Assembly: GCA_040306945.1 (NCBI GenBank) | Contig: JAWRKM010000054.1 | Location: 3,056 to 67,055 of the forward strand | Direction of reading: 5' to 3' | From: Anaerohalosphaeraceae bacterium | GTDB lineage: Bacteria; Planctomycetota; Phycisphaerae; Sedimentisphaerales; Anaerohalosphaeraceae | Length of the DNA stretch: 64,000 nt | Shown here: positions 39,136 through 45,364 of the stretch, piece by piece | Position numbering within the stretch: the first letter of the stretch is position 1 | How the letters are laid out: every line of letters begins with the position of its first letter | Notes under the pieces: generated by a model | Seen by the model: the letters and a program-made list of their open reading frames with translations, nothing else | Database searches by the model: none | Told to the model about the DNA's origin: nothing | Translations under genes and position numbers: made by a program

Positions 39136-39480
39136 TTAAACGTGAACCGGCTGCTCCTTATCCTGTTTGCGAAAGGATTCCAGGGATTGCGGTTCTGCAA
39201 CCTTGCGATAGCCCAGCGCCTTGATCACTTCCAGCACTTCTGTCCAGGCGGGAAAGGGACGCTGGTTGGCCCGTTTATACTGGTCAATGGCCATCAGAAA
39301 TTCGAACTGTTCTTCCGTCATTTCGCCTTCTTCGGCACTGCGTCGCTCTTCGGTCCGACGATGACCAGGACCTCTGCGACGATCCAGCCCAAGACGGCGA
39401 TCCACTACATTTTTCCTGCGTTCAATAAATCCGCGACGTTCTTCCTGATCGCCGGTCGTCGTGTTTTTTTGTTCTGTCAT
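39136..39480 (-). CDS. Hypothetical protein with six (E/D/H)RR repeats and a small C-terminal helical domain
   Basis: EERR-IERR-VDRR-LDRR-GHRR-EERR followed by EMTEEQFEFLMAIDQYK...FPAWTEVLEVIKALGYRK. Confidence 0.8.
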   Translation of the reverse strand: MTEQKNTTTGDQEERRGFIERRKNVVDRRLGLDRRRGPGHRRTEERRSAEEGEMTEEQFEFLMAIDQYKRANQRPFPAWTEVLEVIKALGYRKVAEPQSLESFRKQDKEQPVHV

Positions 39481-39521: not shown

Positions 39522-39833
39522 TTAGTCTTCATCATCCCACTGTTCACTGGTCTGGCTATCGGAACCAAAGACCATATCAAAGAAATCATCACAGGCAGCC
39601 TGGCGAGCCAGAAACGTATACGCCTGTTCAAGAAACTCCTCCGGCACCATGACGGCAACCTCAGCCATAGGCATCTTTTTTGTGTCCGAAAGCGGCTCAA
39701 TCGCCGCCGGAATGCTGTTTTCAAGTAACTGTCGCTTATATTGTTCAGCCAGCTCCATATCTTCGGCAAACGCCACCGTGACTAAATTTTTGAGGTCCGG
39801 CGGGGTCTCCAGCAGTTTTTTGGGTCTTCCCAT
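39522..39833 (-). CDS. DUF2007-like (putative signal-transducing) small protein with acidic tail
   Basis: LVTVAFAED...LAEQYKRQLLENSIPA...VAVMVPEEFLEQA fits the DUF2007 pattern; ends SEQWDDED. Start placed at MGRPKK. Confidence 0.65.
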   Translation of the reverse strand: MGRPKKLLETPPDLKNLVTVAFAEDMELAEQYKRQLLENSIPAAIEPLSDTKKMPMAEVAVMVPEEFLEQAYTFLARQAACDDFFDMVFGSDSQTSEQWDDED

Positions 39834-40141
39834 AATCCAGCCTTTCTTGACTTCTGAGGCCTCAATACAACGCATCAGACGCAGGTTGTTTCGGTCATTT
39901 CGGGGAACGAGTTAACGTGAAACAGGCTTGCGGAATCAAAATTCACGGGCAAAACACCAAAAACAGCTTCGCAAAATTCATACTTTGCGGTTATACGGCC
40001 TCCGAATGCAAAATTTTGTGTTTTTTTCAAATTTTTTTGTTGCTTTTCACCGTCAAGATTTACAAAATACCCACGAGGATTGCGTTTTACGCCTAAATCA
40101 GGCGATATTATTGGAACCACTTAACATGGAGGTAAACACAA

Positions 40142-40357
40142 ATGGCAAAGAAGAAAGCCGCAGCAAAGAGCGCCAAGAAAGAAAAAGAAATGCTGATCGT
40201 CGCCAGCAAAGTCAAGGCCTATGTCAAAAGCAAAGGCATGATGACCTCTTCGGAAGCACTCCCGGCGCTGAATGATTGCATCTACGCGATGCTGGATGCC
40301 GCTCTGGCTCGCACTGAAGCCAACAAACGCAGCACGCTGAAACCCCAGGACCTCTAA
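40142..40357 (+). CDS. Bacterial histone-fold protein with Lys/Ala-rich N-terminal tail
   Basis: SD GGAGG. The core LIVASKVKAYVKSKG-MMTSSEA...A..RTEANKRSTLKPQDL has the histone RxTxxxxD motif and resembles the Bdellovibrio histone Bd0055/HBb (LVVTSKVKKLIKEKG...RKTVMARD). Confidence 0.85.
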   Translation: MAKKKAAAKSAKKEKEMLIVASKVKAYVKSKGMMTSSEALPALNDCIYAMLDAALARTEANKRSTLKPQDL

Positions 40358-40409
40358 TTGGGGATTCGACGACCCTGCCTTGAGTGGCTCGTCAGACATG
40401 ACTCAACAG

Positions 40410-40444
40410 AAAAAGACCGTTTCAAAAGAAACGGTCTTTTTTTT
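40410..40444. terminator. Strong (bidirectional-type) intrinsic terminator after the histone gene
   Basis: AAAAAGACCGTTTC-AAAA-GAAACGGTCTTTTT followed by further T. Confidence 0.9.
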
Positions 40445-40472
40445 CTAAAAGAACTTCACCACAGCAAAGCCT

Positions 40473-40502
40473 TAATGTATATATAATATTATATATACAT
40501 TA
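40473..40502. repeat. Perfect 30-bp spacerless AT-rich palindrome
   Basis: TAATGTATATATAAT followed immediately by its exact reverse complement ATTATATATACATTA. Confidence 0.95.
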
Positions 40503-40701: not shown

Positions 40702-42054
40702 ATGAAAGTGTTCATGCTCGGCTGGGAGTTTCCACCGTTTATCAGCGGTGGCCTTGGAACAGCTTGTCACGGATTGACTAGGGCGATGAGCGATCTGGGC
40801 GTGGAAGTTGTCTTCGTTCTTCCAAAACCATTTCAGCAAACCGCGAGCAACCATGTACGCATGCTGACGCCTTTGCAGGTCAAACCGCAAACGGGAACAT
40901 CCACCCAAATTGCAACCAGTTTTACTCAAAAAGAGCTCAAACATGTAACATTCCATGCCATTAACTCGGCTCTGCAGCCCTATGCTACACCACAGATGTA
41001 TCAGCAGCAAATTGAACAGCTCATCCATCAGAAGGTCACGCAGGAGCAGCTCAAAGCCATCGGCGGTATGGATGAGATCTGTCACTGGCTCAGCCAGGAA
41101 CCCACGGTCATGGGACAGCCCGGCAATTACAGCGGCGATATGTACACCGAAGTCCATCGCTATGCTGCCTCGGCCGTTCGGCTGGCCATGCAGGAACAAT
41201 TTGATGTCATTCATGCTCACGACTGGATGACTTATCCGGCCGGCATTGCCGTTGCCGCATTCACCGGAAAACCCCTGGTTATCCATGTCCACTCGACGGA
41301 ATATGACCGCAGCGGCGAGCATGTCAATCCGATGATTTACGATATCGAACGCCGGGGAATGCACGCCGCCCGGAAGATTATTGCCGTAAGCCACATGACC
41401 CGAAATATCATTTTGGCTCGTTATGGCATTACCGGGGACAAGGTAGAAGTTGTCTACAATGGTGTCGAACGCAACGGAGACGCCTCGCAATACAACAAAA
41501 TGGGCATTCGCAGCGACGAAAAGATCGTCCTGTTCCTCGGACGCATTACCATGCAGAAAGGTCCGGAATATTTTCTGATGTCTGCTCGTAAAGTCCTTGA
41601 GGTCATGGATAATGTCAAGTTCGTCATGGCCGGTTCCGGCGATATGATGCACCGAATGATCGAAATGGCCGCACAAATGGGCATCGGTGACAAAGTCTTG
41701 TTTACCGGTTTCCTCCACGGCAAAGACGTCCAGAAAGTCTTCCAGATGGCTGATCTGTATGTCATGCCCTCCGTATCGGAGCCTTTTGGAATTGCTCCAC
41801 TGGAAGCCCTCAATTATGATGTGCCCGTGCTCATCAGCAAGCAAAGTGGTGTCGCTGAAGTGCTGCATCACGTATTAAAGGTTGATTTCTGGGACATCAA
41901 CGAAATGGCCAACAAGATTATCGCAGTGCTCAAATATCCCCCCCTGCAGCTGACCCTGCGTGAGCACGGCAATTTCGAGGTTCGCAAGCTGCGATGGTCC
42001 GATGCCGCGAGGAAATGTATAAAAGTCTATCAGGAAATGACGCAGGGCGCTTAA
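40702..42054 (+). CDS. GT4-family glycosyltransferase (glycogen synthase-like)
   Basis: MLGWEFPPFISGGLG, IHAHDWMT, FLGRITMQKGPEYF, MPSVSEPFGIAPLEA. Confidence 0.9.
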   Translation: MKVFMLGWEFPPFISGGLGTACHGLTRAMSDLGVEVVFVLPKPFQQTASNHVRMLTPLQVKPQTGTSTQIATSFTQKELKHVTFHAINSALQPYATPQMYQQQIEQLIHQKVTQEQLKAIGGMDEICHWLSQEPTVMGQPGNYSGDMYTEVHRYAASAVRLAMQEQFDVIHAHDWMTYPAGIAVAAFTGKPLVIHVHSTEYDRSGEHVNPMIYDIERRGMHAARKIIAVSHMTRNIILARYGITGDKVEVVYNGVERNGDASQYNKMGIRSDEKIVLFLGRITMQKGPEYFLMSARKVLEVMDNVKFVMAGSGDMMHRMIEMAAQMGIGDKVLFTGFLHGKDVQKVFQMADLYVMPSVSEPFGIAPLEALNYDVPVLISKQSGVAEVLHHVLKVDFWDINEMANKIIAVLKYPPLQLTLREHGNFEVRKLRWSDAARKCIKVYQEMTQGA

Positions 42055-42081
42055 TCGCTTTGCTGAACAATAAGGATTGTT

Positions 42082-43299
42082 ATGCCGTCGGTTTGTTTCT
42101 ACTTTCAAGTTCATCAGCCTTTTCGACTCAGACATTATACGGTATTCGATAAAACACCGAATTATTTCGATGATTTTCGTAATGCATCTATCTGTCGTAA
42201 AGTAGCCAATAAATGTTATTTGCCTACCAACCGGCTCTTGCTGGACATCATCCGTCGGTACGAAGGACGGTTTAAAATCGCTTTCAGCCTGACCGGAGTG
42301 GTGCTTGAACAATTTCAGCAGTTTTGTCCTGAGGTCATGAGTACCTTTGATGCCCTGGCACAGACCGGCTGTGTGGAATTTCTGGCGGAAACCTATTATC
42401 ATAGCCTCAGTTTTCTGTACTCCCGCCAGGAATTCATTGAGCAGGTCAACATGCAGATGCAGTTGATCCAAAAACTGTTCGGACAGACACCCCGGGTCTT
42501 TCGCAATACCGAGCTGATTTACAACAATCAGCTTGCCGAGACTATTGAGGCCATGGGGAAATTTGATGCCGTAATCACTGAAGGTGCCGACCATGTCCTG
42601 GGCCATCGCAACAGCAATTTTGTCTATCGCCCGCCGAACTGCAGGCATCTCAAGCTGCTGCTGAAAAATTATTCGCTCAGTGACGATATCGCATTTCGAT
42701 TCAGTAACCGCCAGTGGAATGAATATCCCCTGATGGCCAACAAATTTGCATCGTGGGTCAACCGCATCAACGGCAACGGTCAGGTCGTCAATCTCTTTAT
42801 GGACTACGAAACCTTCGGTGAGCACCAGTGGCAGGATACCGGGATATTCGATTTCATGGCCCATCTGCCCCGGGAAGTCCTCAGTCATCAGGACAATGAT
42901 TTCAAGACACCCAGTGAAGTGGCAGATACCTACCCGGCTATGGACGTCGTCGATGTCCCGCATATCATCAGTTGGGCTGATACCGAACGGGATTTGTCAG
43001 CCTGGCTTGGCAACGCCATGCAGTCCAATGCCCTCCATGAGGTCTATCGTCTCGAAAAGATGGTCAAGCAGACACGGGACGATCAGCTTCTGGCAGACTG
43101 GAGAAAGCTGCAAACCTCGGATCATTTTTATTATATGTGCACCAAATACTTTGCCGACGGTGATGTGCACAAGTATTTCAACCCCTATGATTCGCCATAC
43201 GATTCCTATATCAATTATATGAACGTCCTGAATAATCTCAAGGCTCGCTGTGAACAAGCCTTGCCGGGTCAGACGGCACAAAAGGATTCATCTCAATAG
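42082..43299 (+). CDS. GH57-family alpha-amylase
   Basis: YFQVHQP (CSR1), ETYYHSL, FRNTELIY (catalytic Glu), SDDIAFRF (catalytic Asp), SWADTERDLSAWLGN. Confidence 0.92.
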   Translation: MPSVCFYFQVHQPFRLRHYTVFDKTPNYFDDFRNASICRKVANKCYLPTNRLLLDIIRRYEGRFKIAFSLTGVVLEQFQQFCPEVMSTFDALAQTGCVEFLAETYYHSLSFLYSRQEFIEQVNMQMQLIQKLFGQTPRVFRNTELIYNNQLAETIEAMGKFDAVITEGADHVLGHRNSNFVYRPPNCRHLKLLLKNYSLSDDIAFRFSNRQWNEYPLMANKFASWVNRINGNGQVVNLFMDYETFGEHQWQDTGIFDFMAHLPREVLSHQDNDFKTPSEVADTYPAMDVVDVPHIISWADTERDLSAWLGNAMQSNALHEVYRLEKMVKQTRDDQLLADWRKLQTSDHFYYMCTKYFADGDVHKYFNPYDSPYDSYINYMNVLNNLKARCEQALPGQTAQKDSSQ

Positions 43300-43336
43300 C
43301 GACAAGGGTTGACCCGTGAACCGAGTTTCTGAATTT

Positions 43337-45364
43337 ATGGCTCATACCAACAAACACCTGCAAGGGACGACGATTCAGTTTAACCTTAAAAACGCTCCAC
43401 TGGAGCTTTTAGTGGAGCGAGAATGGCTGCTGACCAACAGTCGGGCTGGCTTTTCAAGCAGCACCCTGGCCGGCTGCAATACCCGCCGCTATCACGCCCT
43501 GCTGATTGGGTCCCGTACTCCCCCGGCCAACCGCATTAAAGCCCTGGCGACCTGCCTGGAAACCTTGCTTCGAAGCAACGGCCAGGAATTTTCTTTTAGT
43601 TGTTTTGAGTTCGATAAGGCATTTCACCCCCAGGGATATCAATATCTGACCGCATTTCGAAAAGATATCGGCGTTCACTGGGATTACCGTATGGGGTTTG
43701 CCGCATTGACCCGGTCTTTATACCTTCTGCCTGACAGCGACACGATAGCGTTGAGCTATCATTTTACCGAAGTCAAAGAGCCATTTGATTTTTCCATCAG
43801 GCCGTTTGCCTCCATGCAAGACTTTCATAGCCTCCAGAATGAATCTTCCCATCTTTATTCCCTGTGGAATGACCAGGAAATCATTGTTCAAAATGACAGT
43901 CCCCATCATGGTAAGCTGCTGTTGTATTGTGATTCAACTCGGTTTGAACAGCAGCCCCAGTGGTGGCGACGGTTCTTCTATCGTCAGGAACAGCGTCGCG
44001 GGCAGGATTGCTTTGAAGACCTCTGGTCGCCGGGCATCTTTACACGGCGAATCGAAAAACCCTGCCGACTGACATTCTGGGCATCATTGGCCGATGAGAT
44101 GGAACCCAATAACAATCTGGATCAAATAGATCTTGATATTGTCATCGACAGTCTGTCGCTTAAGCACAAGGAGTGGCTCAAAAAAGCCGACACCACTGAA
44201 CCTGTCTGCAGCCAGCTGTTCATTTCCGCCGGCCAGTTTGTGGTGGAGCGAAATATCGGCGATCGCCCAACGCCAACAATCATTGCCGGTTATCCGTGGT
44301 TCCTTGACTGGGGCAGGGACACTTTTATTGCTCTGGAAGGTCTGTGCCTGTGTACTGGACAATATCTGACCGCTGCCGGCGTGCTGCAAACCTTTGCCAA
44401 AGCTGTCAGTGAAGGCATGATTCCGAACCGTTTTGACGATTATGGTCATGGCGCTCATTATAACAGCGTCGATGCATCACTGTGGTTTGTCCATGCCGCC
44501 TTTGCCTATTTACGAACTACCGACGATCGCCAGACATTCAGCGGCAAACTCCTTCCTGCCATTAAATGGATCGTAGACTCCTATCGGCGAGGAACACGCT
44601 TTGACATTCATGCCGATAAAGACAGCCTGATATCTGCCGGCAACGCCGATACCCAGCTGACCTGGATGGACGCTAAATGCAACGGGGTTGTATTTACACC
44701 CCGCTATGGCAAGGCCGTCGAAATTAACGCGCTGTGGTATAATGCCCTGCGGAATCTGGAATGGTATTATCAAGACAAAAATATTGAGCAGACCGCCTTC
44801 TATCACTCTCTGGCCGAAGAGGTTCACAAAAACTTTCCCAGGGTCTTCTGGAATGAAAAATACAATTGCCTGTTCGACTGTGTCCTGCCGGATGGCACCG
44901 AAGACACCAGTATTCGACCCAATCAAATCCTGGCCGTCAGCCTGCCCTATTCACCTTTGACCAGGTCGCAACAGCAAAAAGTCGTTCAAGTGGTGCAAGA
45001 CCATCTTCTGACCCCATACGGCCTGCGAAGTCTCAGCCCCACCGACAGCCGATATGCCCCACGTTACGAAGGCGGCCCCTACGAACGGGATTCAGCCTAT
45101 CACCAGGGAACCGTCTGGGCATGGCTGATCGGACCTTTTATCGAAGCCTATTTACGGATTAACAACTTCACGCCGGAAACCAAACGCCAGGCCAGTCTTT
45201 TTCTTGAACCGCTTCTGACGCATTTTATCGAGGATGGCTGTATCGGCAGTATCAGCGAGGTCTTTGACGGCGACCCGCCCCAGAAACCCAAAGGCTGCTT
45301 TGCCCAGGCATGGAGTGTTGCCGAAGTCCTGCGTGCCTGGATGCTGATTCATAAAGGCAAATAA
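43337..45364 (+). CDS. Glycogen debranching enzyme (amylo-alpha-1,6-glucosidase, GDE_N + GDE_C)
   Basis: REWLLTN...NTRRYHALL, IAGYPWFLDWGRDT, QLTWMDAK, RPNQILA, YHQGTVWAW, AQAWSVAE. A GTG start at 43316 is also possible. Confidence 0.92.
   Translation: MAHTNKHLQGTTIQFNLKNAPLELLVEREWLLTNSRAGFSSSTLAGCNTRRYHALLIGSRTPPANRIKALATCLETLLRSNGQEFSFSCFEFDKAFHPQGYQYLTAFRKDIGVHWDYRMGFAALTRSLYLLPDSDTIALSYHFTEVKEPFDFSIRPFASMQDFHSLQNESSHLYSLWNDQEIIVQNDSPHHGKLLLYCDSTRFEQQPQWWRRFFYRQEQRRGQDCFEDLWSPGIFTRRIEKPCRLTFWASLADEMEPNNNLDQIDLDIVIDSLSLKHKEWLKKADTTEPVCSQLFISAGQFVVERNIGDRPTPTIIAGYPWFLDWGRDTFIALEGLCLCTGQYLTAAGVLQTFAKAVSEGMIPNRFDDYGHGAHYNSVDASLWFVHAAFAYLRTTDDRQTFSGKLLPAIKWIVDSYRRGTRFDIHADKDSLISAGNADTQLTWMDAKCNGVVFTPRYGKAVEINALWYNALRNLEWYYQDKNIEQTAFYHSLAEEVHKNFPRVFWNEKYNCLFDCVLPDGTEDTSIRPNQILAVSLPYSPLTRSQQQKVVQVVQDHLLTPYGLRSLSPTDSRYAPRYEGGPYERDSAYHQGTVWAWLIGPFIEAYLRINNFTPETKRQASLFLEPLLTHFIEDGCIGSISEVFDGDPPQKPKGCFAQAWSVAEVLRAWMLIHKGK

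Follow-up and report, generated by a model that had tools for sequence, protein, structure and literature searches.

The locus described here, a small gene in a window of 64,000 nucleotides (the whole stretch of DNA that was analysed), raises the question of which kind of bacterial histone it encodes, whether the lysine-rich stretch at the beginning of the frame belongs to the protein, and what such a tail might do on DNA. Bacterial histones are a young field, with structures for HBb and HLp only, and both of these proteins are without a basic tail. The explanation that fits best, to which we assign a probability of about 85% with the role of the tail included, is that the protein is an alpha3-truncated bacterial histone of the face-to-face (FtF) type represented by HLp, and that its translated tail would act on DNA as a flexible polycation.

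The 71-aa translation of the ORF agrees exactly with the sequence quoted in the initial annotation. The protein has 745 homologues at E<=1e-3, and homologue representatives, clustered at 50% identity, number 353 at E<=1e-3 and 47 at <=1e-10. A 92-aa ORF on the opposite strand (40121-40399) was rejected, as stops interrupt its frame in relatives. Going by the homologues and the broken antisense frame, the histone ORF is a real gene and not a chance ORF. An in-frame stop lies just two codons upstream of the ATG, the whole open frame comprising 73 aa. The upstream neighbour is divergent and the next gene on the plus strand begins 345 nt downstream of the histone gene, which is thus monocistronic, and it has the strong Shine-Dalgarno (SD) sequence and the terminator of its own that had been attributed to it beforehand (Table 1). 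The terminator, fifty bases 3' of the stop codon, consists of a 16-bp stem and U8. Its RNA fold has -20.3 kcal/mol (z = -5.8, with 0 of 200 shuffles equally stable), and congeners have a hairpin at the same position in which the stem bases are changed. A simple scanner missed this terminator because the stem takes up part of the U-run, and a comparison of it with Rfam gave sub-threshold terminator look-alikes only. Just past the terminator there is a perfect 30-bp AT-rich palindrome (TAATGTATATATAATATTATATATACATTA, 40473-40502), and this stretch is AT-rich and only loosely similar in most genomes of the same genus.

On the other side of the gene, about 40 nt before the start codon, a leader hairpin is found within a block that is conserved in congeners with different stem sequences. 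In 20 of 26 relatives, the fold of the equivalent 23-nt segment is better than that of 95% or more of its shuffles (mean -7.8 versus -2.8 kcal/mol), and the failure of RNAalifold to find anything in an ungapped leader alignment is explained by register shifts between the sequences. The hairpin might stabilise the 5'-UTR, act as an attenuator or be an element close to the promoter. With regard to expression, codon usage was compared between 29 ribosomal/translation genes on contig C73 and 1991 long ORFs, and in a genome with weak codon bias the histone gene has a CAI in the 98.6th percentile and ribosome-specific log-odds at the median. That the gene persists and has a strong SD and a terminator to itself is in keeping with a housekeeping nucleoid protein that is probably abundant.

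Table 1. Features of the histone locus and its surroundings, in positions of the window.
Feature	Position	Strand	Remarks
114-aa unannotated protein	39136-39480	-	Arg-rich N-terminal half, VDRRxGLDRRRGPGHRR; C-terminal half nearly invariant
117-aa acidic protein	39522-39875	-	divergent from histone; D/E-rich C-terminus
Leader/promoter-proximal element	40090-40117	+	hairpin CGCCT-AAATC-AGGCG (40090-40104), then ATATTATTGGAAC
Shine-Dalgarno GGAGG	40128-40132	+	9 nt 5' of ATG
Histone gene	40142..40357	+	71 codons + TAA (ORF list)
Lys/Ala-rich N-terminal tail, residues 1-16 (MAKKKAAAKSAKKEKE)	40142..40189	+	7 K, 2 E
Histone fold, residues 17-71	40190..40354	+	HLp alignment, AF2 helices, Foldseek
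Rho-independent terminator	40408-40446	+	core GACCGUUUC-AAAA-GAAACGGUC, then U8
Glycogen-type cluster	40702-45364	+	GT4/GT5 synthase-like, GH57, GDE debranching enzyme; directly 3' of histone

Downstream of the tail, the protein has the layout of a histone fold, with alpha1 at about residues 18-30, L1 at 31-36, alpha2 at 37-60 and a one-turn alpha3 at 68-70. The segment R63-S-T65-L-K-P-Q-D70 fits the RxTxxxxD motif (RD clamp), and one residue after D70 the chain ends with L71. R57, T58, N61, R63, S64, T65, P68, Q69 and D70 are invariant in an alignment of 33 homologous sequences. AF2, run with the single chain (pLDDT 72), predicts a histone fold in which the helices alpha1 and alpha2 and the one-turn alpha3 are seen; alpha1 runs on from the tail (3-30) with low confidence over the tail, which at pLDDT 58-64 has no confident structure. 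When this model was compared with the PDB by Foldseek, 9qt0_A came first, followed by four HBb chains at ranks 2-5 and then by histone folds of the MHF/TAF kind. The AF2 monomer and 9qt0_A superimpose with an rmsd of 7.8 A, a poor value that is usual for an isolated histone chain, and it is therefore the sequence evidence that carries the family assignment. The domain databases do not capture this family, with PF00125 as the sole Pfam match (E 0.02, below the cut-off) and no NCBIfam match for the histone protein, which is why homologues are named 'hypothetical protein'. The fold, the truncated alpha3 and the clamp had been recognised in the initial annotation and stand on the alignment, the helices and the Foldseek result, and its choice of Bdellovibrio Bd0055/HBb as the closest relative has to be corrected, as HLp is the nearest characterised protein.

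This correction comes from a phmmer search against all PDB chains, in which the best match is HLp (9QT0) with E 1e-19 and 36 of 59 residues identical (about 61%), and HBb/Bd0055 (8CMP, 8FVX) is weaker with E 7e-4 and about 34% identity. The match covers residues 12-70 of the query, 6-64 of the 9QT0 chain and 4-62 of HLp, the chain being numbered as HLp +2 and the present protein as HLp +8, and it reaches within one residue of both C-termini. The first bacterial FtF histone to be characterised, HLp of Leptospira perolatii, is stably tetrameric and wraps DNA over about 60 bp; its structures are PDB 9QT0, 9QT1 and 9QT2 (Hu et al., Nat Commun 2025, PMC12701072). Three of its residues, R49, N53 and R55, have been called conserved among tetrameric bacterial FtF histones (PMC12701072), and all three are kept here as R57, N61 and R63. 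In the complete tetramer network of HLp (R49, S52, N53, R55, T61, F63), which corresponds to R57, A60, N61, R63, Q69 and L71, the other three of the six positions differ (S52 to A60, T61 to Q69, F63 to L71). The RD clamp of HLp, R55/D62, is found as R63/D70. The DNA contacts A13, S14, K15, K17 and K21 of HLp correspond to A21, S22, K23, K25 and K29, and T27, G29, T56 and T57 correspond to T35, S37, S64 and T65, so that seven of nine are identical and two are replaced conservatively (G29 to S37, T56 to S64). A closed homotetramer would be expected from R57, N61 and R63 together with the 61% identity to a crystallographic tetramer.

The alternative is a dimer histone of the HBb/Bd0055 type that binds as a dimer and bends or coats DNA, with no wrapping tetramer. 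It has in its favour that HBb belongs to the same alpha3-truncated superfamily and is detected by both phmmer and Foldseek, that three of the six interface residues of HLp are substituted, and that bacterial dimer histones occur in Planctomycetota too according to the survey passages on these classes (PMC11390915). The same passages treat R48 and N52 in HMM numbering as dimer-dimer residues and define the bacterial dimer class by their absence (PMC11390915), but in the present protein the two residues are present as R57 and N61 and are invariant, whereas HBb has E and D in these columns of the phmmer alignment. As HLp is moreover closer by about 15 orders of magnitude in E, a dimer histone is quite improbable. 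A pseudodimeric DUF1931 histone (Aq_328 / 1R4V type) was also considered and rejected, as the protein is a 71-aa singlet with conserved DNA-contact residues and has no Pfam DUF1931 match; where the 9QT0 record says 'DUF1931', this is simply the depositors' name for the molecule. By the HLp match and by R57/N61/R63, the protein is best classified as a face-to-face histone.

Whether this histone has a tail at all depends on the start codon. In all 19 loci of relatives in which the gene was located, GGAGG (GGAAGG in L023) stands 7-9 nt before the ATG that opens the MAKK sequence, and most of 71 further loci have the same arrangement of GGAGG and start. If translation began at Met17, the lysine-rich stretch would be an untranslated leader and the product a tail-less histone of 55 aa, and there is indeed an ATG at codon 17, just as HLp itself has a start ambiguity with database forms of 63 aa and 77 aa. 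Such a start can hardly be believed, however, since no SD precedes Met17 (the 16 nt 5' of it are AAGAAAGAAAAAGAA-like and contain no GGAGG) and since the equivalent codon is ATG in the nearer relatives only and GTA, GTC, GTT, ACG or TCT elsewhere, the residue being V in 68 of 119 close homologues, M in 33, S in 9, P in 6, A in 2 and I in 1. In addition, the frame upstream of this position is open and Lys/Ala-rich in every relative, with an invariant MAK behind the conserved GGAGG, and the differences in tail length between congeners are in-frame indels without exception. With SD and start conserved and non-start codons at the Met17 position in relatives, we conclude that the lysine-rich tail is translated. 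The initial annotation had come to the same view from the SD at the first ATG and the lack of one at Met17, and its count of seven lysines in residues 1-16 agrees with the ORF translation.

As far as the homologous sequences tell, composition and charge of the tail are conserved and sequence and length are not. In the 119 close homologues, the extension before the L-x-V-A-S-K core has 7-25 residues (median 17), consists of lysine to 45% and of alanine to 26% (together 71%) with only 0.6% arginine, and has a net charge of +2 to +11 (median +7). MAK is the start of all 119 and MAKK of 117. With its 16-17 residues and a net charge of +5, the present tail is average for the family. The K/A composition is closer to that of the C-terminal domain of linker histone H1 than to that of an H3 or H4 tail, and it is also like that of bacterial AKKA-repeat proteins. 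In the search of representatives, tails range from none or acidic ones (Leptospira-like MSEEKEQ) to about 44 residues with charges up to about +20. Long repeat tails (MAKKAPAKKAPAKKAP..., KKKTTKKKTT...) of about 38-44 residues and up to about +20 are seen in the proteins P0124, P0159 and P0194 and at the loci L088 and L091, and long-tailed homologues, some with PAKKA-type repeats, are similar to the PAKKA/AKKA repeats found in H1-like proteins of bacteria. Within the Sedimentisphaerales clade, the conserved features are the MAKKK start and a (K/S)KE(V/M) junction, and the interior varies even within a genus. In its passages on FtF histones, the survey of Schwab et al. (Nat Commun 2024, PMC11390915) describes N-terminal tails of positive charge, without a sequence shared across bacteria, as common in bacterial FtF histones, and according to these passages most of these histones carry a basic tail (PMC11390915). 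The start and junction in the clade are a finer regularity than is given in that part of the survey.

With respect to function, we infer tetramer formation, DNA wrapping and the role of the tail by analogy. According to the homology with HLp, two handshake dimers would join via R57, N61, R63 and the C-terminal carboxylate region to form the closed tetramer, and a basic rim composed of the alpha1 N-terminus A21-S22-K23, of K25/K29 and of L1/L2 (T35, S37, S64, T65) would carry the wrapped DNA (about 60 bp in HLp). The 16-residue Lys/Ala tail of each subunit, with its net charge of +5, would start beside the DNA-contacting end of alpha1, and the four tails, with +20 per tetramer, would emerge at the 'paired ends of helices' DNA contact (A21-S22-K23). 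The tail is most likely a flexible polycation that would neutralise phosphates and bind DNA by non-specific electrostatics. It would thereby raise the affinity, or it would help to compact and possibly bridge neighbouring DNA, like the C-terminal domains of linker histones or eukaryotic tails.

The tail had been termed eukaryote-like, and this holds insofar as it is an N-terminal, basic and translated extension outside the fold, but there are no conserved modification or reader motifs beyond MAKKK and the KE junction. A regulatory platform as in H3 and H4, the lysines of which gain and lose acetyl or methyl groups and thereby tune chromatin, could be thought of in view of the 7 Lys in 16 residues and of a translated tail whose basic character persists in hundreds of homologues, and acetylation of lysines in bacterial nucleoid proteins is known in general. 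This is nevertheless improbable, as no motif is conserved beyond MAKKK, tails have anything from 7 to about 44 residues, with indels between congeners, and the conserved neighbourhood has no acetyltransferase, deacetylase or reader gene. Variation in length and sequence fits selection on bulk charge and not on specific reader or writer sites. Reading of the tails by ZZ domains has been judged unlikely for lack of a conserved tail sequence in the survey's treatment of the tails (Schwab et al., PMC11390915). A speculative and still rather unlikely extension of the polycation reading is that the Lys/Ala tail is a built-in linker-histone-like module, in which the length (7 to about 44) would set compaction or bridging by the FtF tetramer and acetylation would tune it, with the leader hairpin perhaps providing dosage feedback. 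If true, a single bacterial protein of 71 aa would unite the functions of a core histone, of an H1-like neutraliser of charge and of a modifiable tail.

The distribution of the gene has to be considered for its likely importance in the cell. The source genome (3.1 Mb, 99.8% complete) has one histone copy, and the search for a second one in it gave only a non-significant match (E 0.057). Of 41 relatives, 39 have the histone, and so do 29 of 29 high-quality genomes of the order, nearly always as a single copy. A profile search of the phylum found it in 140 of 301 genomes of Planctomycetota (about 47%) and in 97 of the 202 high-quality ones, and it was found in 0 of 10 sampled genomes of other orders of the same class. 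With such a patchy distribution, a link to the condensed nucleoids of the phylum is not established. The planctomycete host that had been supposed is confirmed by named homologues and loci in Anaerohalosphaeraceae / Sedimentisphaerales (Phycisphaerae, Planctomycetota), and according to further survey passages, bacterial FtF histones occur mostly in Spirochaetota, Planctomycetota, Bdellovibrionota and Myxococcota (Schwab et al. 2024, PMC11390915). The genome also has two genes of the HU/IHF family, and the histone therefore need not be the main nucleoid protein. A 100% identical protein is encoded by 'Anaerohalosphaeraceae bacterium U12dextr 2', a record without the label of a metagenome-assembled genome that the others bear, so that it may originate from a culture. 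Some relatives of 120-165 aa (P0137, P0141, P0149, P0151, P0173, P0174 and others) match the query in two stretches, and by their sequences they are apparently tandem doublets of FtF-type histone folds, distinct from the singlet.

The neighbourhood is well conserved, too. A block of the 114-aa protein, the 117-aa protein, the histone, GT and GH57 is kept in about 60-68 of 80 related loci, with the 114-aa/117-aa pair adjoining the histone in 67-68 of 80 (117-aa 67 of 80), GT in 64 of 80 and GH57 in 59 of 80; beyond the two small divergent genes upstream of the histone follow trpB and trpA. The 114-aa protein has 5690 homologues with a mean column identity of 75%, no match in Pfam, NCBIfam or PDB, and a poor AF2 model (pLDDT 62). 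Relatives of the 117-aa protein align from about Met14, and there is a weak DUF2007-like match (E 0.007, below the cut-off). The pair was considered as a functional partner of the histone and rejected: the 114-aa protein occurs in 128 of 301 Planctomycetota genomes, some of them without the histone, its family is present in all 10 sampled genomes of the same class that have no histone, and in the matches checked outside the order it does not lie next to the histone. We take the adjacency as synteny at the level of the order, which does not speak for a partnership.

For the knowledge of bacterial histones, the discovery value of the locus is small, and the novelty implied in the initial annotation does not hold, as earlier publications describe the family, its occurrence in Planctomycetota and the basic tails. 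Its value is that of a well-defined candidate for work on tail function, with a secure start codon, 61% identity to a solved tetramer, and a single-copy gene that no high-quality genome sampled from the order lacks. A search of the literature found no paper in which a basic-tailed bacterial histone was tested experimentally.

Among the known systems, eukaryotic core-histone N-tails, the H1 C-terminal domain and the tailed histones of Asgard share with the present protein a basic terminal extension with or beside a histone fold and likely electrostatic DNA contacts, but the present tails have no H3/H4-type motifs and almost no Arg (0.6%). Nothing points to a shared ancestry with eukaryotic tails, given how freely the present ones vary, even from one congener to another. 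HBb/Bd0055 of Bdellovibrio bacteriovorus (PDB 8CMP, 8FVX, 9EZZ), at about 34% identity, is likewise an alpha3-truncated singlet with an RD clamp, but its dimer bends or coats DNA, and it has neither the R and N tetramerisation residues nor a basic tail (Hocher 2023, Hu 2024). HLp is much more similar, with about 61% identity over the whole fold, the truncated alpha3, the RD clamp, the R/N/R residues and identical residues at 7 of 9 DNA-contact positions, and in both organisms a single-copy gene encodes a small protein of the histone fold alone. The differences from HLp concern the N-terminus, where HLp has about 9 residues before alpha1 (..NAEKDT) without net positive charge, in comparison to 17 residues with net +5 here, as well as the background of the cell, as Leptospira has no HU and the present genome two HU/IHF genes, and the gene context, which is near smc and map in Leptospira and here between two small unannotated genes and the glycogen cluster. 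The N-terminus of HLp is short, non-basic and disordered in the crystals, and for the action of a basic tail it thus offers no experimental precedent. The closest likeness is to the FtF category as it is described in the passages of Schwab et al. (2024) on tailed FtF histones, with the alpha3 family, the R/N dimer-dimer residues, Planctomycetota and the basic N-terminal tail in common and no difference in kind from what is described there. The FtF family, its presence in Planctomycetota and its common basic tails being known already, the present protein is a clean example of them.
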